DNA of 64,000 bases. Source: Dehalococcoidales bacterium (GTDB lineage Bacteria; Chloroflexota; Dehalococcoidia; Dehalococcoidales; RBG-16-60-22). The position numbers and the translations under genes were made by a program. The DNA is taken from contig DAOULX010000008.1 in the NCBI GenBank assembly GCA_034414775.1, positions 659 through 64,658 of the forward strand, read 5' to 3'. How positions within the stretch are numbered: the stretch's first letter is position 1; every line of letters starts with the position of its first letter. Below, one piece after another: positions 10,822 to 53,632 of the stretch. The notes beneath the pieces were generated by a model. That model did no database searches and was not told where the DNA came from. It saw only the letters and a program-made list of their open reading frames with translations.

Positions 10822-12309
10822 TTAAAGTATACCAAACCAGGCATCATTGGTAATATTTCTGGTGGAGGTATCATCATCAAACGCCAGGTATTTGTTCAGC
10901 CTGACTGAAAATTTGGGCCAGTGAGGTATTCCCGCTATGTTTGGATCACCTTTTTTGGCGAACTGTACCCAATATTTCATCATCATTTCCGATATCTTCC
11001 TGTCTACCTCCGTATAACCTTCGCCATTCACATTGCCGAATACGTATGGAATATCGTCCTCGTGAGTGGCCCCAATATCGCTACAAGTGTTTTTCGGTGG
11101 TGACCGGTTAAACCGGTAGACATATACTCTGCCACCCAGCTTACTTAATGCCCGGGCTAACCTATATACCGGGACTGTCCACAAATTACAGGTACGTAGA
11201 TATATTGCATTCCTCAAAGCTTCTTCCTCCGAACCCGACGGAAAAGAAGCCATGACCTGCGTGGCTTTATCACCGAAGCTCTTTACGACAAATGATTTAT
11301 AATTGCCCATGGTTATGGGTGGCATCATCGGGCGGAAAAAATAGGCCTCATCTTTGTTGCTGCCGATAATCATGGGGAGATTAGCCTTCTCCTTGAGGGT
11401 TTTATCCTGGTCTTTGACGACAGCATCGTCCAGCGCTGGGGCAAAACGGAGTTTCTTCGGTTGCTCATCCTTGGCAACTAAATTTCTGGCCACTTCCATT
11501 AGCTTCGAAGGCGTGGTGCGGCGCATTTCTTCAATACTGGCTGCTCCCAGGGCCTTTTGAAATTCAAGTCCATCATGTAATGCCTCCTGATAAGGTATTT
11601 CCCGGGGCGGTGCCAGCAAGCCCCCGCTCTGACATATCGCTTTACTAAATAGCCCTCGGGCTTTAGGCGACGAGCATAATAAGGCTACGCTCATGGCGCC
11701 GGCGGATTCTCCAAAAATGGTGACGTTATCCCGGTCGCCACCAAAACTCGCGATGTTGTTTTGAACCCATTGCAGCGCGGCAATCTGGTCCCGTATCCCG
11801 TAGTTGCCGCTCAAACCATCTCCAGGCTCGGCCTCGAGCCCGGGGTGTGCCATGTTCCCTAACGGCCCCAGCCGATAGTTGAAGTTAATCAATACTACTC
11901 CTCTTTGTGCGAAAGTCGTTCCATCATATTCAGCTTTGGAACCCGAGCCATTCATCCACCCGCCCCCGTGAATCCAGACCATGACGGGCAGCTTTTCAGC
12001 CATAGATATCGAGCTTGTCCAGATATTCAGGTACAGGCAATCTTCGCTCTGTACCTGCATTCTTTCATTATCCGATGGTTCTGGCGGTCTTAGTTGGTAG
12101 GCAATCGGTCCGAAGCGGTTAACTTTTTTTATGCCTTCCCAGGGCTTTAACGGCTGCGGTGGACGCCAGCGCCATTCCCCGACCGGCGCCATCGCATAGG
12201 GAACGCCGTGGAATTTGAAAACGCCGCCTTCCCGAAATCCTTCAAGCAGACCACCTTTGACTCTTACCATCGGTTTATGCTTGTCGTCGTCTTCATATTC
12301 TATTGGCAT
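10822..12309 (-). CDS. carboxylesterase type B (alpha/beta hydrolase, PnbA-like)
   Basis: It has the oxyanion motif VWIHGGGW and the nucleophile elbow FGESAGA. At 495 aa it has the expected size. Confidence 0.85.
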   Translation of the reverse strand: MPIEYEDDDKHKPMVRVKGGLLEGFREGGVFKFHGVPYAMAPVGEWRWRPPQPLKPWEGIKKVNRFGPIAYQLRPPEPSDNERMQVQSEDCLYLNIWTSSISMAEKLPVMVWIHGGGWMNGSGSKAEYDGTTFAQRGVVLINFNYRLGPLGNMAHPGLEAEPGDGLSGNYGIRDQIAALQWVQNNIASFGGDRDNVTIFGESAGAMSVALLCSSPKARGLFSKAICQSGGLLAPPREIPYQEALHDGLEFQKALGAASIEEMRRTTPSKLMEVARNLVAKDEQPKKLRFAPALDDAVVKDQDKTLKEKANLPMIIGSNKDEAYFFRPMMPPITMGNYKSFVVKSFGDKATQVMASFPSGSEEEALRNAIYLRTCNLWTVPVYRLARALSKLGGRVYVYRFNRSPPKNTCSDIGATHEDDIPYVFGNVNGEGYTEVDRKISEMMMKYWVQFAKKGDPNIAGIPHWPKFSVRLNKYLAFDDDTSTRNITNDAWFGIL

Positions 12310-16661: not shown

Positions 16662-17180
16662 ATGATAAGAGAAGAATATGAGAAAAAGTTAAAGAGGTTA
16701 GAGGCTGTTTTGGAAGATCATGAAAAACAGCTGAAAAAATTTAAGGATATACAGGAACTCCAAGAGTTGCATTTAAATTATGCCTACTTGCTGTGCACTC
16801 GTGAATGGGAGAAAATTGTGGATTTGTTCACAGATGATGCAGTGGCTATCCTGCATCGACGAGGAAGGTTTGAAGGAAAGAAAGAAATAATAAAAATATT
16901 TAAAGAAATTGTCCAGAATAATGGCGGCAGGGGAAGAGATGGCCATCTCGCATTACAGCCTATTATTAACGTTGATGGAGACGAAGCAACAGCTCAATGG
17001 CTGATGTACATTATGATTTTGGATCCAAAAGGGAAATATGAGAATACTTGGATGCATGGTAGGCATGATATGGAATACGTCCGTATTGACGGGCAGTGGA
17101 AAATTCGATATATGCTTTTTACATCTCCCTGGCCCAGGGAAGCCTGGTCATACCCCAAATTAGAGCCGCTGAAAAAGTAA
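16662..17180 (+). CDS. NTF2-like / SnoaL-like domain protein (paralog of 277-816)
   Basis: AAGGAG precedes the ATG. The coiled N-terminus (EEYEKKLKRLEAVLEDHEKQLKKFKDIQELQEL) is followed by YAYLLCTREWEKIVDLFTDDAV..RIDGQWKI. Confidence 0.7.
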   Translation: MIREEYEKKLKRLEAVLEDHEKQLKKFKDIQELQELHLNYAYLLCTREWEKIVDLFTDDAVAILHRRGRFEGKKEIIKIFKEIVQNNGGRGRDGHLALQPIINVDGDEATAQWLMYIMILDPKGKYENTWMHGRHDMEYVRIDGQWKIRYMLFTSPWPREAWSYPKLEPLKK

Positions 17181-17199: not shown

Positions 17200-18735
17200 T
17201 TAAGAGAGATATTTAACCGCGTTTTCTCCGGCAATTCGGCCCGAATTAAGCGCAAAGCCAAGCAGGTGCCCGGTGAGTTCGTAGCAGTAGCTATCCGATT
17301 CCCAGCCACCAGTCGTCGAGCCGGCAGCAAAAAGGCCAGGGATAGGATCGTCATTGGAGTTAATCACCTCCATATTTTCATTTATCTTGATACCACCGAT
17401 GGCGTCACAAATCTGTGAATGACCTTTGATAGCATAGAAAGGAGGCGATTTGATTGGTAATAGATATATCTTGTCCTTGCAGAAAACGGGATCATAAGCT
17501 TTATCGCAGGCAGAGTTGTATTCCGCGATGGACCTCTTCAGTGTTTCAGGTCTTGCCCCGATCCAGTTAGCAATCTCTTCCAGGGTGTTGGCTATCTTTA
17601 ACCACTCAGAGTGATTTTCGGCAATTTCACGCAACCCCTTTCCTATTCCGGGTAAGGGTCTCCCGCTCGTCACCGAACGTGCCATCGCCTGTTGAACTCC
17701 GTAGGCAGCCGGGCGGAGCAGTCCTTCCTCCTCAATGGACCCCAATATGCTCTCGTCAAACAGGCAATACATGGTACCCTCTGGCTGCTGAGCCGATGCA
17801 TTAGCACAGGCAAAGGAAGAGAGGTTATGACCTTCATCGATATATCTTCGGCCTCTCTTATTCACCCACAGCGTTTGAGGCTCCCAGACAAGGTTTGACA
17901 GAAATACACTTATCTCATTATCCTTGCCGGGATTGATGGTAATACGTCCATCTGGCGAGTTGGAGGAAGGCGAGTGCGGGCCGTGAAACATGATATGCCC
18001 CAGGCCAGCCATTTCCGCTCCGACTTCCATGGCCAGCTGTATGCCATCTCCGGTGTTGTGGCGTACCCCGTGATTCAGCATGACTTCCGGGTTGTAATAG
18101 GAACAATGCTTCGCGAGTAATTCTTTGTTCCCGCTATAACCGCCGGTAGTGATAATAATGCTTTTAGCGGTAATCTGATAATCTTTATCCGGGCCGGTAG
18201 CCAAAACCCCGGTTACCTGGCCGTTCTTCTCGCATAAAATTTTTTCCCCGGGGGTTCTGGTGAGCACCTGTATTCCTCGTTCTTTGCATTCATTGGCCAA
18301 CACTCTCATTAAAAAAGCGCCCCGGCCTTCGATGGCATGCCTGACGCGCGGGCATTGATTGATATAATATTGACTAAGATGGAAAGTGATTCCCTTTTCC
18401 ATAAGCCATCTAATAGTGTCGCCTGATTTATCGATAAAAGCCCGCACAATGCGTGGATTCACCTTTGACCAGTGGCACCAGCGCATGGCTATTTTAAAAA
18501 AATCGTCCCTACGGGCATCGGTGCCCATCCGCTTCTGAACGATGCTTTCGACTCCGAATAAATCGTGTGCCATTGCGGAAGTGCCACCGGTGGAGCCTAC
18601 CTTCTCCAGCACAATTATTCTCTTGCCGCCTTTTTCCGCTGCCGCTAAAGCTGCCGCCAGTCCTGCGCCGCCGCCGCCGATGATGACTATTTCAGCTTCC
18701 AGTTTCTCACATTCTCTTTCTCCTGAAGAATTCAT
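17200..18735 (-). CDS. FAD-dependent oxidoreductase, FAD_binding_2 family (fumarate reductase / KstD-like flavoprotein)
   Basis: It has the dinucleotide motif VIIGGGGAGLAAALAAAEKG and the C-terminal GLFAAGSTTGG. 511 aa, convergent with the SnoaL-like gene. Confidence 0.85.
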   Translation of the reverse strand: MNSSGERECEKLEAEIVIIGGGGAGLAAALAAAEKGGKRIIVLEKVGSTGGTSAMAHDLFGVESIVQKRMGTDARRDDFFKIAMRWCHWSKVNPRIVRAFIDKSGDTIRWLMEKGITFHLSQYYINQCPRVRHAIEGRGAFLMRVLANECKERGIQVLTRTPGEKILCEKNGQVTGVLATGPDKDYQITAKSIIITTGGYSGNKELLAKHCSYYNPEVMLNHGVRHNTGDGIQLAMEVGAEMAGLGHIMFHGPHSPSSNSPDGRITINPGKDNEISVFLSNLVWEPQTLWVNKRGRRYIDEGHNLSSFACANASAQQPEGTMYCLFDESILGSIEEEGLLRPAAYGVQQAMARSVTSGRPLPGIGKGLREIAENHSEWLKIANTLEEIANWIGARPETLKRSIAEYNSACDKAYDPVFCKDKIYLLPIKSPPFYAIKGHSQICDAIGGIKINENMEVINSNDDPIPGLFAAGSTTGGWESDSYCYELTGHLLGFALNSGRIAGENAVKYLS

Positions 18736-19272: not shown

Positions 19273-20256
19273 ATGAAAAGGATAAAAGTAGTATTCAGAG
19301 GCAGCTTTGAGCCTGAGGTTTGGGATATGTTCATCAAAGAGGCTCCACAAAATATAGAGGCTTTAATGATAAACCCAAAAGATACAACCGAAGAGGCTAT
19401 CGCCAAGCTAATGGTGGACACTGATTTTCTGATATGCTATAGAGGATGTGGCCGCATCCCAAAGGAGACTATTCAGGGAGCAAAAACTCTCAAGCTAATC
19501 CACCAACTTGGACAGGGTACCAACCATATACCGGTAAAAGCTGCGGCGGAAATGGGGATCCCTGTCACCAATATTGGCGGTGCCAGTGCGACGTCTGTTG
19601 CGGAGTATGCCGTGCTACTGATGCTGGCGGTCTTAAGATATCTGCCAATGCGCATCGCAGCTATTCATGGCGAAAAGCAAGATGTCAACCTCACCAGCAG
19701 ATATTCATATCAGCTATACCAGAAAACGGTTGGACTCGTGGGTTTTGGCAATATCGGGCGTTGGACTGCCAGGCTGCTACGCGGCTTTGATGCAAAGGTA
19801 ATCTTCCACGATAATTATGAGATTCCAAAATCAATTGCTGACGAACTCCAGGCTGCCCAGGTGAGTCTGGATGAACTGCTTTCAAGTGCTGATGTTGTTA
19901 GCCTGCACGTGCCACTGCGCGAGAGCACTCAAGGAATGATAGGTTGGGAGCAGCTGAACAAGATGAAGCCTTCAGCTGTTCTGATAAATACTGCCCGGGG
20001 AGCGGTAGTAGATGAAGAATCGCTTATCGGCGCTCTACAACAGAATATTATCGCCGGTGCAGGGTTGGACGTACTCACAAATGAACCGCCAAGCCCCGAT
20101 AATCCGCTATTGCATATGCAAAACGTAATCGTTACCCCGCATTCCGCAGCATCAAGAATCTGGGAAGATATCTCACCCTTAGTCAAACTCAGCTGGGAGA
20201 ATGTTTCGCTGGTGTTGGACGGTAAAAAACCACATAACATTGTGACTCCAGAGTAG
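19273..20256 (+). CDS. D-isomer-specific 2-hydroxyacid dehydrogenase (NAD-binding)
   Basis: It contains GLVGFGNIGRWTARLL (GxGxxG), RESTQGMI, NTARGAVVDE and TPHSAA. AAGGAGAG precedes the ATG. Confidence 0.85.
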   Translation: MKRIKVVFRGSFEPEVWDMFIKEAPQNIEALMINPKDTTEEAIAKLMVDTDFLICYRGCGRIPKETIQGAKTLKLIHQLGQGTNHIPVKAAAEMGIPVTNIGGASATSVAEYAVLLMLAVLRYLPMRIAAIHGEKQDVNLTSRYSYQLYQKTVGLVGFGNIGRWTARLLRGFDAKVIFHDNYEIPKSIADELQAAQVSLDELLSSADVVSLHVPLRESTQGMIGWEQLNKMKPSAVLINTARGAVVDEESLIGALQQNIIAGAGLDVLTNEPPSPDNPLLHMQNVIVTPHSAASRIWEDISPLVKLSWENVSLVLDGKKPHNIVTPE

Positions 20257-20339: not shown

Positions 20340-22022
20340 GTGGCTTTGAAGCGGGGCAGTGAAGCGCTGATGGAAATTATGCAAAACGAAGGAGTTGAGT
20401 ATGTCTTCGGTATCCCAGGTGTAACCGAAATAATGTTCATGAGTGCTCTCGAAAAGCACCCTGAGATAAAGTATATCCTAGGTCTTCAAGAAGTTATTTG
20501 TGCCGGTATGGCGGAAGGCTACGCCAGGATGTCTGGTAAACCGGGATTCCTTAATCTACATACCGCCCCCGGTTTGTCAGCCGCGATGCCCATATTAATT
20601 AATGCCCATATGGGCAACGTACCATTGATAGTAACTGCAGGGCAACAAGATACCCGTCTGCTGCTAAAAGACCCTCACCTGACCGGTGACCTGGTCGGAA
20701 TGGCAAAATCATTCTCCAAATGGCAGACCGAAGTCTTAAGAACTGAGGACATACCTCTTGCCATGGAGCGTGCCTTTAAAATGGCAATGCAACCTCCAAG
20801 CGGACCAGTCTTCTTATCCTTGCCGCATGATGTTATGTGCAATGAGATGGATTTTGAATATACTCCGCGTAAACCGCTCTTGAACGAGCTACGACCAGAC
20901 CGAAATGCTATCACCCAGGCGGTGAATTTACTTGCCAATGCAAAACCTAACAAAACCATAGCAATGTTCGTCGAGAGCGGTATAGCTAGGAACGATGCTT
21001 TATCAGAGGCAGTCCATTTCGCCGAATTGACAGGGGCGCGTGTATACCAGCCGTGGATGTCTGATATTAACTTCCCTATCCAGCACCCACAGTACATCGG
21101 TGGCATACAACTCTCCAGCCCCGAAACCAGAGACATGTTCCAATCAGTTGATGTACTGGTGATAATAGGATGCCCGTCATTATATAATTTACCTTACTTT
21201 GAATTTAGATCAATTTTACCCAAAGATATTAAAATATTACAGCTAGATGATAATCCCTGGGAAATTGCCAAAAACTTCCCAATAACGGTTGGTATCCAGG
21301 GTCATATAAAGGCATCCCTCAGGGAACTGATTGATAATCTGGAAGAGAAGATGACAACTGAGGCCAAACAAGCGGTAAAAAGCAGGATAAATGATATATC
21401 TGTACAGAAACAAGCCGTTTCAGAAGCTTTTCGTAAGCAAGACGAGGCAGAAAAGGATAACATCCCCATTTCCGTTTCATGGTTAATGAGAGAATTAAAC
21501 CGTGTTATTACACGTGATACCGTAATCGTGGATGATTGCTGGTCATCATCACGAACCCTACAGCGTGTACTGGATATTACCGATGTTAAAGGTTTTATCC
21601 GTTCTCGCCGGGGAGGGAGTATAGGATGGGGATTGCCAGGTGCTATCGGCGCCAAATTGGGTGCACCTAATCGGCCTGTAGTAGCTGTGTGCGGAGACGG
21701 CAGTGCCATGTGGTCAATCCAAGCTTTATGGACAGCAGCACACTGCAAAATACCAGTTACTTTTCTCATAATATCCAATGCAAATTACCGACAAGCCAAG
21801 CTTATGTGGAAAGTGTTCTTAGGTGGAGATTTAACTGAGAAGCGTATTGGCATGGATCTGGACGATCCCGTAATCAACTTCTGCAAGTTAGCTGAAGCAA
21901 TGGGTGTCTATGGAGAGAAGGTGCAACACCCAGATAACTTGGGACAGGTGTTGACAGATGCCATCGATTCCAATGCACCACGTCTGATTGAAGCGATTGT
22001 AGAAAACAAAAACACTCCTTGA
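20340..22022 (+). CDS. thiamine-diphosphate-dependent enzyme (acetolactate synthase / benzoylformate decarboxylase-like)
   Basis: GTG start 7 nt after AAGGAGG. It has an N-terminal Pyr domain (GVEYVFGIPG) and the C-terminal ThDP motif GDGSAMWSIQALWTAAHCKIPVTFLIISNANY. Confidence 0.85.
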   Translation: MALKRGSEALMEIMQNEGVEYVFGIPGVTEIMFMSALEKHPEIKYILGLQEVICAGMAEGYARMSGKPGFLNLHTAPGLSAAMPILINAHMGNVPLIVTAGQQDTRLLLKDPHLTGDLVGMAKSFSKWQTEVLRTEDIPLAMERAFKMAMQPPSGPVFLSLPHDVMCNEMDFEYTPRKPLLNELRPDRNAITQAVNLLANAKPNKTIAMFVESGIARNDALSEAVHFAELTGARVYQPWMSDINFPIQHPQYIGGIQLSSPETRDMFQSVDVLVIIGCPSLYNLPYFEFRSILPKDIKILQLDDNPWEIAKNFPITVGIQGHIKASLRELIDNLEEKMTTEAKQAVKSRINDISVQKQAVSEAFRKQDEAEKDNIPISVSWLMRELNRVITRDTVIVDDCWSSSRTLQRVLDITDVKGFIRSRRGGSIGWGLPGAIGAKLGAPNRPVVAVCGDGSAMWSIQALWTAAHCKIPVTFLIISNANYRQAKLMWKVFLGGDLTEKRIGMDLDDPVINFCKLAEAMGVYGEKVQHPDNLGQVLTDAIDSNAPRLIEAIVENKNTP

Positions 22023-22330
22023 CATTATATGCTCCCCGGTAACTGGGTAAAAGTAGAGTGATTTTTAAGTAATCGAAGAAAGCATTAGCTTCATGAAATG
22101 TTGCTCGTGAACATTAAATTTGTGTGATTCGTAGACATCGTTTCAAGAGGTCTTGGAGCTACCATCAAAAAAATGTGGAAATATTCAACGGCAGCGAGTA
22201 CCATATTAGGTAGCCCAAAAAACAGCCGAAGGAGGTACTTGCCGCCGCCATGGGATAGTACAAACTTTCAATACATGCTGATAGCAACAACTCCAGATCG
22301 CAAGAATATATATTGGATAAGGAGAAGTAG

Positions 22331-24937
22331 ATGGGTAAGACCGAAAACAGCCGAGAAAATACCGTTATCAGGTCTTTAGCCCTCGGAGGTGGTTTAGGTG
22401 GCGGCGGGCCATGTGCGGTGGACGTTAAAGACGGTAAAATAATCAGGATCAAACCCTTGCACTATGACTGGAAATATAAAAAAGAAGAACTAAATCCTTG
22501 GAAAATTACCAGGAATGGCCAAACCTTTGAACCTCTTATGAAAACGGTAGTGGCTCCTTTCTCACTGGCATACAAAAAGCGAGTCTATTCTCCCAATAGA
22601 ATTAAATATCCCTTAAAGAGGAAAGACTGGGACCCTAATGGGAAAAGAAATCCTCAGAACCGGGGCAAGACCAAGTATCAGAGAATCTCCTGGGACGAGG
22701 CTGCTCAAGTAATAGCGGATGAAATAAAAAGAGTTAAGGCAACATATGGTCCACTGGCAATCTTGTTGCAGGGGGATGGGCACGGGGAATGCAAGACCAT
22801 CCATGCATCTCACGGATGCCCTGCGATTCTCTTAGATAAAATGGGAGGCTTTACCCAGCAGATAAGAAACCCGGACAGTTGGGAAGGCTGGTATTGGGGC
22901 TCCAAGCATGTGTGGGGACAGGGCTGGGTGGGCATGATGAGGCCCTCGACTAATCTGGTCAAGGACATCACCGAGAACTGCGAATTGGTCCTCTGTTGGG
23001 GCTGTGATCCGGAAACCACCTCTTGGGGATTTACCGGCCAGTTTGCCAGCCGGCTAAGCTACTTCTGGAAGGATGTTGGCATAAATCAAGTCTATATTTG
23101 CCCTGACCTTAATTATGGAGCGGCGGTTCATGCGGATAAGTGGATCCCTATTCTTCCAAATACCGACGCCGCCTTACAGTTAGCTATTATATATCAATGG
23201 ATAAAGAAAGATACTTACGATAAGCAGTATGTGGACACTCATACCGTGGGATTTGACAAGGTTAAAGCTTATGTAATGGGGGAAGAAGATGGTATAGCCA
23301 AGTCCCCAGAGTGGGCCTCCAAGAAATGTGGCGTTCCTGAATGGACTATCAAAGCTCTGGCAAAGGAGTTTGCCTCAAGGATCACCTCCATTGTCCATTA
23401 TTTTGGCGGCTCCATGGTTAGAGGGGCTTACTCACACGAGCCAGCTAGGCTGGAAGCTATCTTACTGGGCATGCAGGGGCTGGGGAAACCCGGTGTCCAT
23501 CAGTTCCAGATAGGTTATGTAGGAATGCCCAGAAGTAAAGCCGCCATAGACTCATCATTTTTTAATGTTAATGTGAGTGAAAGTATTAAAAGGCCACAAG
23601 CAGTCACCCTAGAATTGAGTGAAAAGCAAGGTATTCCCAAAACCCTTATACATAAAGCTATTCTTAATCCCCCACTTAATTTTTGGGGCAGTGGTGCCAT
23701 AAATGCTACCTATGAGGACCAATTTAAGAAGTACACCTATCCCATCCCTAAAGATCAGGGTGGTACGGAGATCCATATGATCTGGACGGACTCTCCTTGC
23801 CGGACCACCTGCTGGAACTGCGGCAACGAGATCGTCGAATCTTATCGTAGTCCCAAGATAGAATGTATGATAGCCCAGCATCCCTGGTTGGAAAATGACT
23901 GCCTATATGCTGATATAATCCTGCCGGTCAGTACCACCTTGGAGGTGGAAGATATTGTAATTAATCTCAGGCAGGGAGTACAGTTCCAGAGCATCGTGCT
24001 GCAGAAACAAGCTATCCAACCAATAGGAGAATCGCGGAGCGATTTGGAAGCAGTTTATGAGATAGCCAAAAAACTGGGCAATTATGATGAGATCAACGAT
24101 AGTAAGAGCTCTGAAGAATTAGAGAAATCGGTCTTCGATTATATGGGAGCGCAGAAGTTCATTAACTGGGAAGAGTTCAAAGAAAAGGGCTACCTCCCCT
24201 TCCCGATTGCTGAAGATTGGGAAAAAGATCCAGCGGGTTTAATAAAATTCTATGAGGATCCGGTAATGAACCCTCTGACTACTCCCTCGGGTAAGCTGGA
24301 GTTCTATTCCGAAAGACTAGCTAAATATTTCCCCCATGATCAAGAGAGACCGCCGATTCCTAAGTGGATAGAAAAGAGTGAAATGCATGATGAAAGACTC
24401 TCCAGCAAACGGGCGCAAGTATATCCCCTGCTTCTGATGTCCAACCACGGAAGATGGAGAGTACATGCCCAATGCGACGACATACCGTGGACAAGAGAAA
24501 TTCCGACTTGCAAGGTAAAGGGATGGGATGGTTATCTATACGAGCCTGTTTGGATACATCCTAAAGATGCAGAAAAAAGAGGCATAAAAGATGGAGATAT
24601 TGTTAAAGTATTAAATGAGCGTGGTATTGTTCTTGGGGGAGCGCGTGTCTGGGAAAGAATAATGCCCGGTGTAACCTATGTCGACCATGGCGCGAGAGTA
24701 GACTACATCATTCCAGGAAAACTTGATCGGGGAGGGGCAATCAACACCATCGCTCCAGATGGAATTACTTCTAAATATTGTGGTGGGCAGGCCACCAGCG
24801 GTTACCTGGTGGAAGTCGAAAAGTTGACTCTCTCGCAACTTGAAGGTTGGAAGAATCAATACCCGGATGCTTTTGTCAGGGGATACGATTCATCATGCGG
24901 ATTACTTTTTGAATCCTGGGTAACTGAAGAAAGTTGA
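22331..24937 (+). CDS. molybdopterin (bis-MGD) enzyme without Fe-S cluster motif, pyrogallol-phloroglucinol transhydroxylase large-subunit-like
   Basis: 868 aa with no N-terminal Cys cluster and no twin-arginine motif. It has DMSO-reductase-family architecture. The strings VKDGKIIRIKP, YPLKRKDWDPNGKRNPQNRG and NPDSWEGWYWGSKHVWGQGW match my recollection of AthL. This needs checking. Confidence 0.75.
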   Translation: MGKTENSRENTVIRSLALGGGLGGGGPCAVDVKDGKIIRIKPLHYDWKYKKEELNPWKITRNGQTFEPLMKTVVAPFSLAYKKRVYSPNRIKYPLKRKDWDPNGKRNPQNRGKTKYQRISWDEAAQVIADEIKRVKATYGPLAILLQGDGHGECKTIHASHGCPAILLDKMGGFTQQIRNPDSWEGWYWGSKHVWGQGWVGMMRPSTNLVKDITENCELVLCWGCDPETTSWGFTGQFASRLSYFWKDVGINQVYICPDLNYGAAVHADKWIPILPNTDAALQLAIIYQWIKKDTYDKQYVDTHTVGFDKVKAYVMGEEDGIAKSPEWASKKCGVPEWTIKALAKEFASRITSIVHYFGGSMVRGAYSHEPARLEAILLGMQGLGKPGVHQFQIGYVGMPRSKAAIDSSFFNVNVSESIKRPQAVTLELSEKQGIPKTLIHKAILNPPLNFWGSGAINATYEDQFKKYTYPIPKDQGGTEIHMIWTDSPCRTTCWNCGNEIVESYRSPKIECMIAQHPWLENDCLYADIILPVSTTLEVEDIVINLRQGVQFQSIVLQKQAIQPIGESRSDLEAVYEIAKKLGNYDEINDSKSSEELEKSVFDYMGAQKFINWEEFKEKGYLPFPIAEDWEKDPAGLIKFYEDPVMNPLTTPSGKLEFYSERLAKYFPHDQERPPIPKWIEKSEMHDERLSSKRAQVYPLLLMSNHGRWRVHAQCDDIPWTREIPTCKVKGWDGYLYEPVWIHPKDAEKRGIKDGDIVKVLNERGIVLGGARVWERIMPGVTYVDHGARVDYIIPGKLDRGGAINTIAPDGITSKYCGGQATSGYLVEVEKLTLSQLEGWKNQYPDAFVRGYDSSCGLLFESWVTEES

Positions 24938-24996
24938 AAAGGTGCATATAAGGCCTCAGCCTTTGATGAAATAATGAATACGGGGGATTATAAAGA

Positions 24997-27411
24997 TTGA
25001 GCAGTATTAATTCAGCAGTAGACGGGGAGAGGATAATAAGAACTGCTTGTCATCTCTGTCACGGTGGTTGTATCTTACTGGCCCATGTTAAAGAGGGGAG
25101 ACTTATTAAATTAACAGGTGACCCCGAGGGGCCATTAAACAGAGGCGGTATGTGCGAAAAAGCATTTTCTGCCGTTGACTATGTATATAGCCCCTATCGC
25201 CTCAAACATCCTATGAAAAGGGTTGGAGAAAGGGGTGAAGGGAAATGGCAAAGAATCTCTTGGGATGAAGCTCTTGACACCATAGCTGGAAAATTGCAGG
25301 TCATAAAAGACAAATATGGAGGAGAGAGTATTGCATATGCTACTGGCACCGGTAGAGTAGCCGTCGAAACGCCGCAAGAGTTTTTTAGTGCTGTATTGGG
25401 TACACCGAATTGTATAGGTATTGGTCACATGTGCCTTAGTACCACCAGAAGACCCGTTGTTTATTCAACTCTAGGAACAGTACCCGGAAATATGGATAAA
25501 GGTATTTGCCGTGATTTTGAACGAGCTCAGTGTATCGTAGTTTGGGGAGATTCAATTATCGACTCGCGTGGTGATTATATGGGGCTCGCAGGGAAAAGGA
25601 TTTCTTCAGCACTCAATCGAGGAGCAAAGCTGATAGTCATAGACCCGGTATTAACAAAGGTGGCAGCGAAGTCCCATCTATGGCTGCAAGTCAGGCCTGG
25701 AACTGATATCGCTCTTGCATTGTCATGGATACATATAATTATAAATGAAAACCTATATGATATGGATTTTGTAATAAACTGGACCAATGCACCTTTTCTC
25801 GTCAGGTCTGATACGGGAAAGCTGCTAAGGGAAAAGGACATTTTACCCGATGCGTCACCTGATAATTTTGTTGTTTGGAATGCTGATGATAATACCTACC
25901 ATATATGGAACTCCGATATGCTCTCCTACGACTCGCACATTGCACAACCTGCTTTGACCGGAAGTTACTCAGTCAGCTTGGCAAACGATAGAATAATTGA
26001 ATGTAAGCCAGTCTGGCAAGTCATCAAAGATAATGTTAGAGAATGGACGCCGGAAAGGGCAGCCGAGATAACATGGATTCCCCCTGAAAAAATTGTAGAA
26101 TCTGCCATGATGTATGCCAAGATTAAGCCCGCATGTCTTGAATGGGGGCTTGGGACCTCTCAATGCACACGGTCAACAGCTACAAATCAGGCAATTTTAC
26201 ATCTTAAAGCAATTACTGGAAACCTTGATATTCCTGGAGGTAACCCTTTCTGGATTAATCCAGGAGTACTGGGAAGACCTGTCTTCTCCGCTTATCCCCC
26301 TGGGCAAGAAAAAAAGCGTATAAATGGCGGTTTCCCTTTTAATTGTTATGAAATATTGCCTGTCTTTGCTACCCATGCACCTACAGCGTGGAGGGCTGTT
26401 TTAACAGAGGAACCCTATCCAATCAAAGCGCTAGTCGGCCATAGCAGCAATCCATTATTAGGACATGAAAATCCAGGCAATTATATCCTCGAAGCATTGA
26501 AAAAGTTAGAGTTCATTGTATGGATAGATATTACGATGACGCCATCAAATGAGTGGGCAGACATTGTCTTACCCGCATCAACACCTTTGGAAAGGGACTG
26601 GATATCTGAATTTGACAGGGGCGTCTTTGCCGGCAAGGCCGTAATTCAACCACAGTGGGAAAGCAGATCTGACCTTGAAATTTATAGGGATTTATGTCAA
26701 AAGATGGGGCGTGAGGATGCATGGCCATGGAAGACTGATCGAGAGTGGTGTGACTATAGGTTAAAAGGTGCAGGAATAACTTTTGATGAGTTGACTGAAA
26801 CTTGTTTCAAACCTGCACTGGATGTTTGGAAAAAATATGAAAAGGGCTTGATACGTAAGGATGGTAGACCAGGATTTCAGACAAATTCAGGGAAAGTTGA
26901 ACTATATTCATCTCTTTTTGAGAAAGCAGGCATTCAACCTCTACCGCATTTTAGTTATCCGCCTGAAAGTTACGAAACCACGCCCGATTTAGCAAAAGAA
27001 TACCCATTAATATTAATTACTGGAGCTCGGGAATTAAATTATCCATTCTTTCAGACACAATACCAGATTTTACCCCGTTTGCGTAAAATGCAGCCTTATC
27101 CTTTGGTGCTTATTCACCCGGATACGGCACGTTCCTTGGAAATAAAAGACAATGATTGGGTATGGATAGAGACAAAAAAAGGCAAAGCCAAATTCAGAAC
27201 TCAAGTTACAGAAAGAATACATCCAAAGGTAGTTTCCGCCTCACATGACTGGTGGAATCCAGAATTTCCCGGTCCTGATCACGGGGCATTTGAGTCAAAT
27301 GTGAACCTCCTTGTTGACCCCGTCAGCTTTACTGACCCAGCTTCAGGTACAACAGAACTTAGAGGACTATTATGCAGGGTATATAAGTTCGAAGCAATCG
27401 CTGAAACTTAA
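24997..27411 (+). CDS. molybdopterin/tungstopterin (bis-MGD) enzyme with N-terminal [4Fe-4S] motif, acetylene-hydratase-like clade
   Basis: TTG start after GGGGGA. It has the Cys motif CHLCHGGC...C(EKA) and a candidate metal-ligand Cys in GIGHMCLST. The C-terminal GKVELYSSLFEKAGIQPLPHFSYPPES..LAKEYPLILITGARE resembles acetylene hydratase as I recall it. Confidence 0.75.
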   Translation: MSSINSAVDGERIIRTACHLCHGGCILLAHVKEGRLIKLTGDPEGPLNRGGMCEKAFSAVDYVYSPYRLKHPMKRVGERGEGKWQRISWDEALDTIAGKLQVIKDKYGGESIAYATGTGRVAVETPQEFFSAVLGTPNCIGIGHMCLSTTRRPVVYSTLGTVPGNMDKGICRDFERAQCIVVWGDSIIDSRGDYMGLAGKRISSALNRGAKLIVIDPVLTKVAAKSHLWLQVRPGTDIALALSWIHIIINENLYDMDFVINWTNAPFLVRSDTGKLLREKDILPDASPDNFVVWNADDNTYHIWNSDMLSYDSHIAQPALTGSYSVSLANDRIIECKPVWQVIKDNVREWTPERAAEITWIPPEKIVESAMMYAKIKPACLEWGLGTSQCTRSTATNQAILHLKAITGNLDIPGGNPFWINPGVLGRPVFSAYPPGQEKKRINGGFPFNCYEILPVFATHAPTAWRAVLTEEPYPIKALVGHSSNPLLGHENPGNYILEALKKLEFIVWIDITMTPSNEWADIVLPASTPLERDWISEFDRGVFAGKAVIQPQWESRSDLEIYRDLCQKMGREDAWPWKTDREWCDYRLKGAGITFDELTETCFKPALDVWKKYEKGLIRKDGRPGFQTNSGKVELYSSLFEKAGIQPLPHFSYPPESYETTPDLAKEYPLILITGARELNYPFFQTQYQILPRLRKMQPYPLVLIHPDTARSLEIKDNDWVWIETKKGKAKFRTQVTERIHPKVVSASHDWWNPEFPGPDHGAFESNVNLLVDPVSFTDPASGTTELRGLLCRVYKFEAIAET

Positions 27412-27698
27412 TGTAGAAACCAGATAAAATTCATAAGCGTTTTTTTTTACTGATCATGCTGATGAAACTGCATCAGAAACTACTTTTCCATTTATATCAT
27501 CCTAATTCTTTCTATCATATACTTTATTGGTGATTAGCACGCATCCTCGATACTCAGTAGCACTCGGTATAGCTGTGGACTGCTTGTGCCATTGGCCCCA
27601 AATACATCTAGACTTCCCTTCGCTCACTAGCTTCTCGCAATTGAACATACCTCAACTATATTCGACCAAATCAGAACGATACCCGAATGGCGGTTAAT

Positions 27699-27772
27699 TT
27701 GACATTATCTCTGCTATATGTTATATAGTAACTTAATAATGGGAATATAATTCCTCTTGTCGGAATATTAGG
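27699..27772 (+). promoter_or_regulatory. sigma70-like promoter plus palindromic candidate operator upstream of the UbiD gene
   Basis: TTGACA(27699-27704)-17 nt-TATATA(27722-27727) is followed by GGGAATATAATTCC..CGGAATATTAGG (27741-27772), which has GGAAT/ATTCC arms. Confidence 0.35.
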
Positions 27773-27810
27773 TATATTATACATATAAAAATAAGAGAGG
27801 AGGTAACTTT

Positions 27811-29271
27811 ATGCCTGGCAGAGACTTAAGGAGCTGGATAGTCCAATTGGAAGCTGAGGGTGAGTTTAAGAAAGTAACCGCACCAGTAGATTGGAACGAA
27901 GAAATATCCCAAATTATCCGGAAAGTATATGCCCAAAATGGTCCAGCTCTTCTATTTGATAATATCAGGGATTACCATAATACTCGGGGCCGAAGACTAT
28001 TTGTCAACGGTTTGGGAACAACAGGTCGTGTAAATATGATGCTCAATCTACCGAAGGATACTCCTATTCCAAAGCTGATAAAGACGATCAGAGATAGAAT
28101 GAAGTCACCAATAAAACCTGTGACGGTTAGCACCGGACCGGTCAAAGAAAATATTGTCAAAGGTGACGATATTGACCTTTTTCAATTCCCGGTGCCCAAA
28201 TGGCATGCGCATGATGCTGCGCGTTATATTAATACTTTCTATTCGGCAGTGACCAAGGATCCGGATACCGGCCAGTTAAATTGTGGTATCTATCGAGGTG
28301 GGATACTCAGTAAGAACAAGATAAGCAACCTATTGATACCCATGAAAGATTGGGGCGCTACTTATTCTAAGTACCAGCTTATAAAAAAACCAATGCCAGT
28401 AGCATTCGTCTATGGCTGGGATCCGGCTCTACTAGCAATTTCGGGAGTTCCATGTATCGGGCCCGAGTATGACCTGGCAGGAGCATTAAGGCAAGCTCCA
28501 GTGGAATTGGTTAAATGCGAATCCTCAGATATAGAGGTCCCTGCTTCAGCAGAAATAGTGGTTGAAGGCACTATTTCTCCGGATCCCCAAAGCTACGAAG
28601 TCGAAGGGCCATTCGGTGAGGCTTCCGGGTACTATGGTGTGGCTAGAACAAGACCGGTGGTAGAAGTTAGTTGCATCACGCACAGAAATGATCCCATTTT
28701 CCGAGGGGGTTATGTCGGTACTGAGAGTACTGTTACAGATGAACTCAAGACCATGGTGGGTAACACCATGTCAGCCGGTGTTTGGAGTATATTGGATACG
28801 CAAGAAATTCCGGGTATACTTGACGTCCAAACAGGGCACATAACAGCAATCAAGATTCACAAAACCTACCAAGGCCAGCCCAGGCAGATAAGCGCGGCTT
28901 TATGGGGATCCAAGTTTGCGGGTCAAGCTAACAGCAAGATAATCATGGTGGTTGAAGAAGATGTGGATATTCATAATCCCATGGATCTTCAGAAAGCCCT
29001 ACATGATAAACTAGATATTAAAGGAGGTCTAGTCTCATATCCCTTATACATCGGATCACCAGCGGACCCAAGTATTCCCTATGAGATGAGAAATGAGCTA
29101 AAATATGGGGCTGCCATGCAAGAAAAGCTGCTAATTGACGCTACGACCGATTGGGAAATTCACCCCATTCGCTCTGAGTGGGGTGGTAGCAGATTCCCCC
29201 CCAAGGCTATTGAAGCTTCAAGAGAAATAGAGGAATTGGTAGATAGAAGGTGGAAAGAATATAATATATAG
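27811..29271 (+). CDS. UbiD-family (prFMN-dependent) decarboxylase
   Basis: GAGGAGG precedes the ATG. The N-terminal RDLRSWIVQLEAEGEFKKVTAPVDWNEEISQI..GPALLFDNI is typical of UbiD. 486 aa. Confidence 0.85.
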   Translation: MPGRDLRSWIVQLEAEGEFKKVTAPVDWNEEISQIIRKVYAQNGPALLFDNIRDYHNTRGRRLFVNGLGTTGRVNMMLNLPKDTPIPKLIKTIRDRMKSPIKPVTVSTGPVKENIVKGDDIDLFQFPVPKWHAHDAARYINTFYSAVTKDPDTGQLNCGIYRGGILSKNKISNLLIPMKDWGATYSKYQLIKKPMPVAFVYGWDPALLAISGVPCIGPEYDLAGALRQAPVELVKCESSDIEVPASAEIVVEGTISPDPQSYEVEGPFGEASGYYGVARTRPVVEVSCITHRNDPIFRGGYVGTESTVTDELKTMVGNTMSAGVWSILDTQEIPGILDVQTGHITAIKIHKTYQGQPRQISAALWGSKFAGQANSKIIMVVEEDVDIHNPMDLQKALHDKLDIKGGLVSYPLYIGSPADPSIPYEMRNELKYGAAMQEKLLIDATTDWEIHPIRSEWGGSRFPPKAIEASREIEELVDRRWKEYNI

Positions 29272-29679: not shown

Positions 29680-30873
29680 ATGAGCGCATTAAATCAACTG
29701 ATAAAGATGTACATTCCGAATTCGGTCGTTGGATTAGGGGCTATTAACTCCATCAGTGAAACTATCAAAGGTTTTGCTCCGACAAAAATTCTTGTTCTTT
29801 CCGATGAAGGTTTGAGGAAAGCCGGGATTGTAGATAAGGTTATACCCTACCTTAAAAGTGCCGGCTATCCATTTGATATTTATGATAAATGTGAAACGGA
29901 GCCAACTATTAGCCACATTGAGACATTAGCACATAGTATTAAAACTAAACACTACGATCTCCTTATCGGTTTGGGAGGAGGCAGTGTCATGGATACTACC
30001 AAGGTCGCGAGTTTAATTGCTGCCAACAAGGGTGTAAACACTTATGACTTGATTAACGGCCAAAAGGTAGAAAATACCATTCGAAAGATACTTATTCCTA
30101 CTACTGCCGGTACTGGCTCGGAATGGAGCTATGCCGCCGTGGTTTCGGACGATAAAGCAGATAAAATGACAAAACTGATCTCAACCCAGCAAAACTTTGC
30201 TGATGCAGTGATCATAGACCCGGAACTAACCTTCGATTTACCTCCCAGGATTACAGCGGATACCGGGATCGATGCTCTTACACACTGTATGGAGGGCTAT
30301 TTCGGAGCTAGATCGAATGTACTTTCTGATATGATTAATGGAACAGCCTTGCAGCTTATTGCCGATAACTTACGTTCTGCCTACCTTCAGGGAACCCAAA
30401 ATCACGAAGCCCGATTTAATATGTCGGTTGCTGCCGCTCTTGCAATTCAGGGTGGAGGTCTTTCTGGTTCACCACTCGCACATATTTTAAATGAACCTCT
30501 TGGAAAAAGAGTGCACATATCCCACGGTACTGCCTGTGGCTTATTACTGGTGCCAGTCATGAAGTTTAATCTCCCAAGTAATCCGAAGAGGTTCGCCCAG
30601 ATTGCCCGAATAATGGGAGAAGATATCCATTTGCTCTCTGATCTTGAAGCAGCTGCCAGGTCAACGGAGGCAGTATACAAACTGATTAAAGACATTAAAA
30701 TGCCGACAAAACTTGCTGAGGCGACGGATATCGAGCTTACTGAGACAGATATCTCGATAATGGCGGAACAAGTCTCTAAAGCCTTTCCCATACTAAATTT
30801 AACAAATACCCGGCCAGTCACTCTCTCAGATGTAACACAAATCTATAGGCATGCTATTTGGGGAGAAAACTAG
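29680..30873 (+). CDS. iron-containing (group III) alcohol dehydrogenase
   Basis: It has the GLGGGSVMDTTK motif and the metal-site histidines IDALTHCMEGY and RVHISHGTACG. 397 aa. Confidence 0.85.
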   Translation: MSALNQLIKMYIPNSVVGLGAINSISETIKGFAPTKILVLSDEGLRKAGIVDKVIPYLKSAGYPFDIYDKCETEPTISHIETLAHSIKTKHYDLLIGLGGGSVMDTTKVASLIAANKGVNTYDLINGQKVENTIRKILIPTTAGTGSEWSYAAVVSDDKADKMTKLISTQQNFADAVIIDPELTFDLPPRITADTGIDALTHCMEGYFGARSNVLSDMINGTALQLIADNLRSAYLQGTQNHEARFNMSVAAALAIQGGGLSGSPLAHILNEPLGKRVHISHGTACGLLLVPVMKFNLPSNPKRFAQIARIMGEDIHLLSDLEAAARSTEAVYKLIKDIKMPTKLAEATDIELTETDISIMAEQVSKAFPILNLTNTRPVTLSDVTQIYRHAIWGEN

Positions 30874-31513: not shown

Positions 31514-33445
31514 ATGAACGATTTCGGCTATGCCGGTGAGATACTCCGGGTAGACCTGACGACTGGATCCGTCAGCAAGCTAATCACGTCCGATTACGCC
31601 GAACGGTTCCTGGGTGGCCGGGGCATCGCCGCTAAAATTCACTGGGATGAAACTCCCCTCCCCGTCCAGGCCTACAATCCCGGCAACTGCCTGGTCTTCG
31701 CCACCGGGCCGTTAACGGGATTCACCCGGTTGTCAGGCTGCCGTTGGGAGGTCTGCGCCACGGCGCCGGGTGGCGACCGGGACCGCTTTTCTTACGCCAA
31801 TTTCGGGGGGAGCTGGGGGGCCTGGCTCAAATTCAGCGGCTACGACGCGCTGGCCGTTACCGGTCGTGCTGAGCGCCCCGTCTATCTCCTCATCGAAAAC
31901 GGAGACGTTGAAATCAGGGACGCCGCCTTCCTCCGTAGCAAGACCACCTCCGAGACCCAGGAAATGCTGAAGGCAGAACTGGGGAAAGGGGCCAAGGTGC
32001 TCTGCATCGGACCGGCCGCCGAGAACCTGTTGCCCTTCGCCACCATCCTCGCCGAAGATAACGCCTCCGGTACAGGCGGCCTCGGCGGCGTCATGGGATC
32101 GAAGAATCTCAAAGCAATCGTTATCCGGACCGGTGAACTGAAAAGACCGGTGGCTGCCGAACCGGAGCTTCTCAAGACGCTTACAGAACAGGTCTACCGG
32201 CTACAGACGGAGAACTGGGAAGACCACGGCCACGAATTGGTCGCCATGGCCGGAAGGACGCATCGCACCGCCTGCTACGGATGCATCAAGGGCTGCACCC
32301 GCGGGATGTACCGGACTGAGGACGGGCGTCAGTTCAAGTTTTACTGCCAAGCCACTGCCGTCTACCGCGGTCCGGCGGCGAAATACAACGGGAATGCCGG
32401 GGATATCGATAAACTGGCAACGCGACTCTGTGATGAATACGGGCTGGATACCGCCGTACTCCAGCCGATGATCGAATGGCTGGATCGCTGCTATGAAGCG
32501 GGCCTGCTCAATGAACAACTGACCGGTCTGCCAATGGAGCGGATCGGCAGTCCGGAGTTTATCAGGGAGCTGACAAGGAAGCTTGCCTTCCGCGAGGGCT
32601 ACGGTGATGTCCTGGCCGCGGGTACATTCGAGGCCGCCGCTCGTGTCGGCCGGGACGCTGTTGAGCTCATCGGGACGACTATCGCCACACGGGCCGGGGA
32701 GTGCCGCGACCATGATCCCAGACTGTTACCACCCAATATCCTCATCTATGCCACGGAACCACGCCGGTCGGTCTATCTGCTCCACTCGACGGCCTTTCCG
32801 TTGACAAGGTGGCTGAACTGGCAGGCTGGCGCCGATAATGCGTTCCTTACCACCGATATCCTCCGGACCATCGCTGAGAGGGAATGGGGCAGCCGGGACG
32901 CTTTCGATTTTACCACCCGCGGCGGGATGGCTTTGGCCACGAAAAAGATCCAGGACTACGGGTATATAAAATCGAGCCTGGTGCTCTGCGACATGGCCTG
33001 GCCGATCTATCAGGTCCACTCGCTGGATAGCAGCATCGGGGCGTATACCCTGGAAAGCCGCCTTGTCTCGGCTATCACCGGGCGGCCGATGACCGAAGCG
33101 GAATTGGAAAAAACCGGCGAAAGGGTATTTAACCTGCAACGGGCGATACTAAACCGGCAGGGGTGGGGAGGTAGGTCGGGGGATAGCCTCGTCGAGCCGC
33201 TTTTCACCGAGCCCCTTGACGGGACGTTCTATGACCCCGAGAGCATTGTCCCCGGCGGTGATGACGACCCGGCTCCAAGAAAGGGCGCCGTCATCGGAAG
33301 AGAGGATTTTGAGAAGCTGAAGGACGAGTACTATACGTTGCGTGGTTGGGACGTGGCTACCGGACTTCAGAAAGATTCCAAACTGATTGAGCTGGGGCTC
33401 GGAGACATCGCCCGGGTGTTGGAGGAAAGCGGCCTCTTAAAGTAG
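31514..33445 (+). CDS. aldehyde:ferredoxin oxidoreductase family (tungstopterin) enzyme
   Basis: It has the N-terminal AFOR motif GEILRVDLTTGSV..FLGGRGIAAKI and the cluster motif TACYGCIKGC. 643 aa. Confidence 0.85.
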   Translation: MNDFGYAGEILRVDLTTGSVSKLITSDYAERFLGGRGIAAKIHWDETPLPVQAYNPGNCLVFATGPLTGFTRLSGCRWEVCATAPGGDRDRFSYANFGGSWGAWLKFSGYDALAVTGRAERPVYLLIENGDVEIRDAAFLRSKTTSETQEMLKAELGKGAKVLCIGPAAENLLPFATILAEDNASGTGGLGGVMGSKNLKAIVIRTGELKRPVAAEPELLKTLTEQVYRLQTENWEDHGHELVAMAGRTHRTACYGCIKGCTRGMYRTEDGRQFKFYCQATAVYRGPAAKYNGNAGDIDKLATRLCDEYGLDTAVLQPMIEWLDRCYEAGLLNEQLTGLPMERIGSPEFIRELTRKLAFREGYGDVLAAGTFEAAARVGRDAVELIGTTIATRAGECRDHDPRLLPPNILIYATEPRRSVYLLHSTAFPLTRWLNWQAGADNAFLTTDILRTIAEREWGSRDAFDFTTRGGMALATKKIQDYGYIKSSLVLCDMAWPIYQVHSLDSSIGAYTLESRLVSAITGRPMTEAELEKTGERVFNLQRAILNRQGWGGRSGDSLVEPLFTEPLDGTFYDPESIVPGGDDDPAPRKGAVIGREDFEKLKDEYYTLRGWDVATGLQKDSKLIELGLGDIARVLEESGLLK

Positions 33446-35625: not shown

Positions 35626-35659
35626 ACATCTTTCCCCGTCCGGTTAAGGCAGGCACGCC

Positions 35660-36472: not shown

Positions 36473-36474
36473 CC

Positions 36475-50181: not shown

Positions 50182-50364
50182 GTCCCCCGTCCGTTCGTGA
50201 TTGCAAAACCACGTATGACAACTGTAAACTAGGCACTATGTAATGCTTTTGCAACTTTTCCAGGCCGGGTTTTATGATTTTGTAACAAACGGTTTGCTAA
50301 CATTGAAGACGATACCGGAGGGCAAACGCCGTTCGATGCGGTGAACCGCCGTAAGGAGGCAAGC

Positions 50365-51303: not shown

Positions 51304-51329
51304 AGCCGGCCGCAGGACGCGGCCGCAGT

Positions 51330-53629: not shown

Positions 53630-53632
53630 ACA

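Follow-up and report, generated by a model that had tools for sequence, protein, structure and literature searches.

A transhydroxylase-family molybdenum subunit encoded without an adjacent iron-sulfur subunit gene in a Dehalococcoidales genome

The RhL/PgtL family is recognised in the literature as a small one with two characterised members (PMC10100899). Two enzymes that belong to it, resorcinol hydroxylase (RhL) of Azoarcus anaerobius and 3,5-dihydroxybenzoate hydroxylase (DbhL) of Thauera aromatica AR-1, have phenols as substrates; both are cytoplasmic, consist of an alpha and a beta subunit and have a Ser ligand (PMC10100899). Here we describe a gene of this family from a Dehalococcoidales bacterium (assembly GCA_034414775.1), located at positions 22331-24937 of a 64,000-nucleotide stretch of contig DAOULX010000008.1, hereafter the window. 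A first-pass annotation, made from the sequence alone, had likened its product, which we call alpha, to the large subunit of the Pelobacter acidigallici transhydroxylase (AthL or PgtL; chain A of 4V4C, 4V4D and 4V4E) and had remarked that no gene for the iron-sulfur subunit BthL, or beta, stood next to it. Alpha belongs to this established RhL/PgtL (transhydroxylase/hydroxylase) family, part of the dimethyl sulfoxide (DMSO) reductase superfamily, and is not a new kind of enzyme; it is an architectural variant, whose iron-sulfur subunit has been lost in cis and which has been maintained by selection. RhL and DbhL, which we liken to alpha by their published description and not by sequence, differ as redox hydroxylases that need an electron outlet. 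We know of no settled reason why the pyrogallol transhydroxylase, whose reaction is net non-redox, carries a 3x[4Fe-4S] subunit.

A Ser-ligated molybdenum enzyme of the RhL/PgtL family

The open reading frame (ORF) at 22331-24937 lies on the forward strand, begins with an ATG that has a ribosome-binding site (AGGAG, 22320-22324, same strand) 6 nt 5' of it, and encodes 868 residues. The motifs quoted from it earlier, GGGGPCAVDVKDGKIIRIKP, YPLKRKDWDPNGKRNPQNRG, NPDSWEGWYWGSKHVWGQGW and DTYDKQYV, were all found in the translation. As the first-pass annotation had stated, the N-terminus, MGKTENSRENTVIRSLALGGG, lacks a Cys cluster (it holds one cysteine and no CxxCxxxC) and a twin-arginine (RR) motif. 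The missing twin-arginine signal predicts a cytoplasmic location. The Pfam search detected AhtL-like_1st (PF21423; 48.3 bits, cut-off 27), Molybdopterin (PF00384; 91 bits) and Molydop_binding (PF01568; 61.8 bits) in alpha, and did not find Molybdop_Fe4S4 (PF04879) there.

The top PDB sequence match of alpha was 4V4C_A (423 bits, E 1.5e-125); the highest-scoring chain of the TorA/DorA type (MtsZ/TorA-type) reached 251 bits. The same chain came first in a Foldseek search (E 5e-60, TM score 0.79) with an AlphaFold2 model of alpha built from 44 homologs (predicted TM score 0.84), and was followed by the monomeric MtsZ, DorA and TorA (TM scores 0.70-0.73). Since 4V4C_A was ahead in both rankings, the alternative that alpha belongs to the BisC/TorA group is excluded, and the earlier placement in the AthL branch holds. 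The BisC/TorA/DorA assignment also fared poorly against dedicated models, TIGR00509 reaching 359 bits with a cut-off of 1017 and the TorA NCBIfam models 282-289 bits with cut-offs of 909-1465. DorA, TorA, BisC and MtsZ do resemble alpha in being Ser-ligated, in having the same overall fold and in lacking both the FS0 Cys-cluster domain and a beta subunit; as monomers, they indicate that this branch of the DMSO reductase family can operate without an iron-sulfur subunit. The DorA, TorA and MtsZ chains score 215-251 bits against alpha (one TorA chain, 200 bits) and lack the AhtL-like first domain, and DorA and TorA, unlike alpha, are periplasmic S-/N-oxide reductases.

For the comparison with AthL, its residues 12-867 were rebuilt from a printed alignment, with the length and residues 144, 153, 174, 175 and 404 as expected, and aligned with 112 alpha sequences of related loci. 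The Mo ligand Ser175 and the preceding Asp174 of AthL correspond to Ser183 and Asp182 of alpha (codons 22874-22879, forward strand) within the conserved NPDSWEGW, and AthL His144 corresponds to His151 (22781-22783, forward strand). All three residues were unchanged in 110 of 110 aligned relatives, His151 across all clades, and the WEGW that follows the Ser was invariant in every clade. The Mo chemistry of alpha is probably conserved relative to AthL, and we predict alpha to be a Ser-ligated catalytic subunit with a Mo-bis(pyranopterin guanine dinucleotide) cofactor (Mo-bisPGD). The two proteins have in common, in addition, an AhtL-like first domain in place of the FS0 domain, the lack of a twin-arginine signal and a similar length (868 residues in alpha, 875 in AthL). 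They differ in a C-terminal extension of about 36 residues, found throughout the clade to which alpha belongs, and in the absence of a bthL gene beside alpha in the window.

Alpha is only 37% identical to AthL, whereas the 836-aa clade and the L035/L059-type paralogs of related genomes reach 49-55%. The residues that reportedly form the pyrogallol/co-substrate pocket (Messerschmidt et al. 2004) are Tyr152, Arg153, Trp354, Tyr404 and Tyr560, and also His145 and Trp147; the residue identities matched the rebuilt AthL. Alignment with alpha showed Tyr152 replaced by Ala159, Arg153 by Ser160, Trp354 by Gly359 and Tyr404 by Val415 (the alignment is gappy near 404), with the Tyr560 region deleted and Gly and Cys at the positions of His145 and Trp147. 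The match to AthL was therefore correct as to family and Ser ligand, and failed as to orthology: judged by these comparisons, alpha is not an AthL orthologue and falls in a different paralog clade. Because its pocket differs from that of AthL, it probably acts not on pyrogallol but on another hydroxylated aromatic compound. Since the pocket residues set the entire clade apart, the window protein included, the many genes of sediment Chloroflexi and Desulfobacterota named "pyrogallol hydroxytransferase" should not be annotated as pyrogallol-degrading.

Absence of the beta gene in the window and its repeated loss in the clade

The search for beta covered all 64 kb of the window in six frames. Four methods bore out, across this whole stretch, the earlier claim that the beta gene is missing near alpha. 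A Cys-motif scan revealed no BthL/DmsB-type gene; tblastn found no beta when the query was L003:6129-6959, a BthL homolog confirmed by its 220-bit match to 4V4C_B; and a profile hidden Markov model (HMM) derived from 72 beta sequences, with which all six-frame peptides of at least 15 residues were searched at maximum sensitivity, found neither a beta nor a remnant of one. Likewise, tblastn with the Fer4_11 protein that partners an acetylene-hydratase-like enzyme at the related locus L004 found no equivalent (E<10). The sole ferredoxin-type matches in the 64 kb, all distant from alpha, were a FixB-like subunit of an electron-transferring flavoprotein (ETF; 36475-37725), a FixX-like ORF (38969-39301) and a CCG-domain protein (7899-9164). 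Between 19.2 and 31 kb, where the first-pass annotation had seen no Cys-rich ORF, there is a single one, at 19443-19787, with 9 Cys; it is an alternative frame inside the gene of a 2-hydroxyacid dehydrogenase, and no ferredoxin motif occurs in it. A BthL-type 3x[4Fe-4S] subunit encoded beside alpha, which defines the characterised heterodimer, is thus absent from the window.

We then asked how relatives of alpha are arranged. More than 5,000 database proteins matched alpha at E<=1e-30, and the best 120 of them, 67-74% identical, are nearly all generically named proteins of uncultured Chloroflexota, Deltaproteobacteria and Actinomycetota. In species-representative genomes, a scan yielded 80 loci with 56-74% identity to alpha, all of them in metagenome-assembled genomes (MAGs). 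In a neighbour-joining tree with 100 bootstraps, alpha fell within a clade of 95 sequences (bootstrap 100), apart from the 836-aa clade and from AthL. This large, uncharacterised clade occurs in MAGs of anaerobic Dehalococcoidia, Desulfobacterota and Actinomycetota. In sediment Chloroflexi, genes named "pyrogallol hydroxytransferase" and acetylene-hydratase-like genes have been noted repeatedly, in multiple copies, none of them characterised (PMC3971608, PMC4959651).

Gene context, assigned from tblastn coordinates, was assessable for 83 alpha genes of the clade. A BthL-like gene lay directly beside alpha in 62 of them (about 75%), just upstream in three cases and otherwise typically starting a few to about 30 nt past the alpha stop; in six, alpha was followed by another alpha, and 15 had no adjacent beta. 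The beta proteins of the clade have about 269 residues and the Fer4_11 plus CarboxypepD_reg architecture of BthL. Beta-paired members (L005, L016, L017 from Chloroflexi RBG_13_51_18, L087 and L088) resemble the alpha of the window in identity (56-74%), length, motifs and C-terminal extension, and share with it 269 of 274 near-invariant residues. They differ from it in two features that are missing in the window: a closely following beta gene, after a gap of a few to about 30 nt, and a tryptophan at position 430. The missing beta is therefore a departure from the norm of the clade itself and not a trait of the family or of the clade; it is a derived loss within a subclade.

This subclade emerged when the tree was extended by 14 metagenomic relatives. 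It has seven members (bootstrap 97), namely the window, L002/P0004, P0002, P0005, P0006, P0010 and P0011, and beta was absent in five of its five assessable contexts, on contigs of 4.4-64 kb. Our own prediction that a wider, 17-member group would be uniformly beta-less failed, as P0023 and P0014 carry an intact beta 3-4 nt downstream. The intact beta of these two indicates that its loss was recurrent and not a single event, and more beta-less alphas are dispersed over the tree. At L084 (= P0003), a sister of P0023 and P0014, a pseudogene of beta, interrupted by stops and internally deleted, comes directly after an intact alpha (L084:10626-10980), and L085 is identical. In one frame of this remnant, the N-terminus of beta (VKAFVIDV) can be read before stops set in, and the bulk of the cluster-binding region is gone; in another frame, a fragment with the last Cys motif is fused to the C-terminal Ig-like domain. 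The ORF that remains there has 76 residues, with a C-terminal CarboxypepD_reg-like domain. In L087 and L088, sisters of L084, beta is intact. Beta has thus been lost many times within the clade, and L084 is a case of loss caught in progress.

Alpha itself shows the marks of constraint. All seven subclade members are full length. Of 274 positions with a conservation of 95% or more in beta-paired members, the alpha of the window is changed at five, all conservatively; this number falls within the range of the beta-paired proteins (mean 2.9, SD 4.6). In the subclade genes whose DNA was compared, the proportion of synonymous differences (pS) was 0.81-0.90, which is saturated, and that of nonsynonymous differences (pN) 0.12-0.17, so that the ratio of their rates (dN/dS) can be read only qualitatively within the subclade. 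For the alpha of L084, beside its decayed beta, dN/dS was 0.03-0.08 versus beta-paired sisters. By these measures, alpha has been under strong purifying selection in the subclade after the loss of beta. An uncharacterised sister clade has therefore repeatedly shed beta, and at least one of its subclades has long retained alpha under strong selection.

A stand-alone alpha, a beta in trans or another partner

One alignment column separates beta-paired from beta-less proteins. Of 61 crown-group proteins paired with a beta, 59 have Trp at position 430, and of 17 beta-less ones, 6 do (Fisher p ~1e-7, a value that ignores phylogeny). The residue is Ser in the window (codon 23618-23620, forward strand). 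Position 430 is a candidate beta-related site, either a beta contact or part of an electron relay. The Trp was lost independently at least six times: in the subclade of the window (Ser/Arg), in L004 (His), L006 (Glu), L009 (Ala), L067 (Met) and P0003, where it is Cys while a beta-paired sister with 84% identity has Trp. It was retained in beta-less copies that lie beside an alpha-beta operon of the same clade or within alpha-alpha-beta operons. Furthermore, 15 conserved columns deviated in three or more independent beta-less lineages, compared with 5.7 +/- 3.4 in random beta-paired controls. Besides 430, window residues 36, 148, 206 and 605 are sites of recurrent change. The Trp430 pattern may be a hint that a beta-related constraint has been released. 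An earlier constraint test on an ad hoc set of five beta-less sequences detected no shared deviations, in a group that is unsupported as a clade (bootstrap 29).

The first-pass annotation had also suggested that a second molybdenum/tungsten (Mo/W) protein, encoded immediately downstream, might take the place of beta. This gene (24997-27411, forward strand) does encode a different Mo/W-bisPGD enzyme with an N-terminal [4Fe-4S] motif, of 804 residues and without a twin-arginine signal, in which Pfam detects the Fe4S4 domain that alpha lacks; the spacing is 59 nt (24938-24996) and not 60. The spacer contains no beta remnant by the beta HMM and no terminator-like hairpin, and the latter suggests that the two genes are probably co-transcribed. 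A promoter and terminator scan of 19.0-33.6 kb gave counts no better than shuffled sequence and says little about operon structure. The junction was identical in an independent Logan assembly (L001, run SRR14802573) and so is not an assembly chimera.

The top PDB match of the downstream protein is acetylene hydratase (2E7Z, 312 bits). In acetylene hydratase, the FS0 cysteines and the Cys ligand to tungsten are said, after Seiffert et al. 2007, to be accompanied by a catalytic Asp13 beside the second FS0 cysteine. The protein of the window retains these cysteines, with HMC at the metal-ligand position, but Asp13 is His (CHLCHGGC instead of CQSCDINC) and there is an insertion of about 77 residues; on these two grounds we rejected acetylene hydratase itself as its identity. 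The acetylene-hydratase-related class of catechol dehydroxylases from gut Actinobacteria includes soluble members without a twin-arginine signal, paired with a small 4Fe-4S protein (PMC7028382). By this published description, the FS0 motif, the Cys metal ligand and the missing twin-arginine signal, the enzyme would fit the catechol dehydroxylase class. In carrying a small 4Fe-4S partner, its relatives at L004 and L084 resemble the soluble Gordonibacter-type dehydroxylases: the acetylene-hydratase-like genes of L004, L084 and L074 are each followed by a Fer4_11 protein of their own (214 residues in L004, 223 in L084). In the window, unlike in those systems, this partner is absent, and neither tblastn nor the HMM search found a trace of it in the 399-nt gap (27412-27810) where relatives carry it. 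Both Mo/W enzymes of the window operon thus stand without the iron-sulfur partner gene that is usual among their relatives.

The reading that we tentatively favour, while regarding it as somewhat short of an even chance, is that in the subclade of the window alpha stands alone, without a dedicated beta. Alpha would then be a functional, cytoplasmic Mo-bisPGD catalytic subunit, drawn from a clade that normally pairs with a 3x[4Fe-4S] beta, and would work on its own, like the monomeric DorA, TorA, BisC and MtsZ of its sister families. It might catalyse a Mo-mediated transfer of a hydroxyl group (oxygen atom) on a phenolic intermediate, by a chemistry that would be either redox-neutral (transhydroxylation-type) or served by direct electron exchange with a soluble carrier. 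Going by gene context only, it could do so in a catabolic cluster together with a thiamine diphosphate (ThDP) decarboxylase, a UbiD decarboxylase, the acetylene-hydratase/catechol-dehydroxylase-like enzyme, an iron-containing alcohol dehydrogenase and an aldehyde:ferredoxin oxidoreductase (AOR). In support of a stand-alone alpha, no beta lies within reach in five subclade contexts despite the otherwise tight coupling of the two genes, and the structurally nearest sister families in the Foldseek search are monomeric. Only a little behind it, though also less likely than not, is the reading that alpha instead forms a heterodimer with a BthL-like subunit supplied by a paralogous operon elsewhere in the genome, so that the cis copy alone was lost. 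Such sharing has a precedent in E. coli ynfEFGH, where two alpha paralogs go with one beta. It is in keeping with the tandem alpha-alpha-beta arrangement of L033 and L038, with L079 and L081, in which a big-clade alpha and an 836-type alpha go with a single beta, with the position of P0008 within an alpha-beta-alpha-alpha cluster, and with the beta-less alphas of L003, L014 and L040, from which another alpha-beta operon is no more than 10 kb away. Several paralogs can also occur in one MAG, as in MFD05942.bin.1.358 (loci L008, L018 and L073). Yet no beta lies within 64 kb of alpha or on the four other assessable subclade contigs, where the usual gap would be a few to about 30 nt, and Trp430 was lost in this subclade while being kept in beta-less copies that have a same-clade beta nearby.

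Several points weigh against a stand-alone alpha. Trp430 is lacking, in spite of a beta, in AthL, in the 836-aa clade and in deep branches of the clade of alpha; it therefore is not a universal beta contact and is at most a beta-related site specific to the crown group, and the counts relating Trp430 to beta are uncorrected for phylogeny. Global constraint is not relaxed in the beta-less subclade, as a shared beta would predict: subclade-specific replacements at conserved positions (10/360) show no excess over four beta-paired control clades (5-18), and the branches are not longer, although a large interface that had long been vacated should have changed more. Clusters with more alphas than betas (alpha-alpha-beta, alpha-beta-alpha-alpha) are common, so that one beta may serve several alphas. 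Going by what Messerschmidt et al. 2004 reportedly found, the iron-sulfur clusters of transhydroxylase are not known to have a catalytic role. We consider it rather unlikely that the full picture applies, in which a transhydroxylase-family lineage is truly beta-free and monomeric, the loss of Trp430 marks the vacated site, and alpha, together with the partner-less acetylene-hydratase-like enzyme, rearranges phenolic hydroxyls without a dedicated electron-transfer subunit. If it did apply, this lineage would be natural evidence that the iron-sulfur subunit of the family is dispensable for catalysis. The beta-less alphas are in any event natural "beta-deletion" variants, and with position 430 as a candidate marker they offer a way into the role of beta in catalysis, stability or activation.

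The remaining explanations are far less probable. That the acetylene-hydratase-like neighbour, with its own [4Fe-4S] cluster, replaces beta as a physical or electron-transfer partner, or in a variant is coupled to alpha so that hydroxylation by one of the two enzymes and dehydroxylation by the other amount to net transhydroxylation, is quite improbable. The 59-nt spacing without a terminator-like site and the lack of the usual iron-sulfur partners of both enzymes would suit it. So would the recurrence of the pairing at L004 (alpha 74% and acetylene-hydratase-like protein 60% identical to those of the window) and the presence of such a gene 5 kb upstream of the L084 alpha. However, just 6 of the 83 loci in the survey have such a gene, and it adjoins alpha only in the window and L004; L002, L086, L089 and P0010, the other beta-less subclade members that could be assessed, do not have it, which speaks against the substitution proposed in the first-pass annotation; its Fer4_11 protein in L004, L084 and L074 makes it behave as a separate enzyme; and the L004 alpha carries an in-frame stop. 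Nor do we know of any alpha-alpha' heteromer described in the DMSO reductase family. A functional link of alpha and this enzyme in one pathway is plausible.

Still less credible is a true pyrogallol-phloroglucinol transhydroxylase, orthologous to AthL, that merely lacks an annotated partner. AthL gives the best PDB and Pfam matches, and a UbiD decarboxylase 2.9 kb downstream could in principle yield pyrogallol from gallate. Against this stand an identity to AthL well below that of other clades, the replaced pocket residues, and the fact that no genes of a phloroglucinol pathway were recognised in the window. It is very unlikely, and the least likely of these explanations, that alpha is a decaying, non-functional orphan left by disruption of the operon. 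The alpha of L004, the closest genome-derived relative, does contain an in-frame stop, and the pseudogenisation of beta was seen in one relative; but the window gene has an intact ORF with a good ribosome-binding site and retains all but five of its 274 near-invariant residues, the seven subclade members are all full length, and pN is low across the subclade while synonymous sites are saturated.

Two observations on related loci may be added. The stop in the L004 alpha (L004:42-2615, 74% identity, from a Dehalococcoidia MAG) reads IK*PWNWV where the window has IKYPLKRK, and represents either an assembly error or incipient pseudogenisation. Three Dehalococcoidales clusters (L079:578-6069, L081:450-6719 and L080:6294-18178) contain alphas of two paralog clades, about 40% identical to each other, followed by a single beta, which suggests that beta is shared or that some of the alphas are independent of it.

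The surrounding genes and a possible pathway

The genes that flank alpha on the same strand include several that could belong to one catabolic cluster. Upstream are a D-2-hydroxyacid dehydrogenase (19273-20256, forward strand, by Pfam and NCBIfam), which is possibly part of the same cluster, and a ThDP-dependent decarboxylase (20340-22022, forward strand), which among NCBIfam models scores highest with benzoylformate decarboxylase (363 bits, under the cut-off of 493). Past the acetylene-hydratase-like gene follow, all on the forward strand, a prenyl-FMN aromatic-acid decarboxylase of the UbiD family (27811-29271; Pfam UbiD, and TIGR00148 with 264 bits, cut-off 244.85), an iron-containing alcohol dehydrogenase (29680-30873, Pfam) and a tungsten-type AOR (31514-33445, Pfam). 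Alphas of related loci neighbour TRAP or short-chain fatty acid transporters, WYL or GntR regulators, short-chain dehydrogenases/reductases, CoA-transferases and AORs. The gene context of the window and of its relatives points to anaerobic catabolism of hydroxylated aromatic acids as the function of the cluster.

A few kilobases past the AOR gene, a flavodoxin is followed by a FixABCX-type ETF set (35179-39301) whose EtfA has an N-terminal 2x[4Fe-4S] ferredoxin domain, and a second, lone ETF-beta-like gene is found at 54490-55281. On the other side of alpha, 17200-18735 (reverse strand) encodes a flavoprotein for which the best NCBIfam model is the vinyl phenol reductase VprA (270 bits, under the cut-off of 600). 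Proteins with a SnoaL_4 domain are encoded at 277-816 and 16662-17180 (both forward strand), and a carboxylesterase at 10822-12309 (reverse strand). Together, the VprA-like flavoprotein, the SnoaL_4 proteins and the carboxylesterase may be further hints of phenolic-compound metabolism around the locus.

Toward the far end of the window, a 189-residue ORF at 57124-57693 (reverse strand) has a LysR substrate-binding domain and no helix-turn-helix, and may be a truncated or split regulator. A URO-D-family protein is encoded at 58662-59996 (forward strand); this family includes methyltransferases of anaerobic demethylation systems. Next to it lies a 484-residue ORF with no Pfam match (60095-61549, forward strand), and a glycine-betaine-type ABC transporter (50341-54394) is found beside these two genes.

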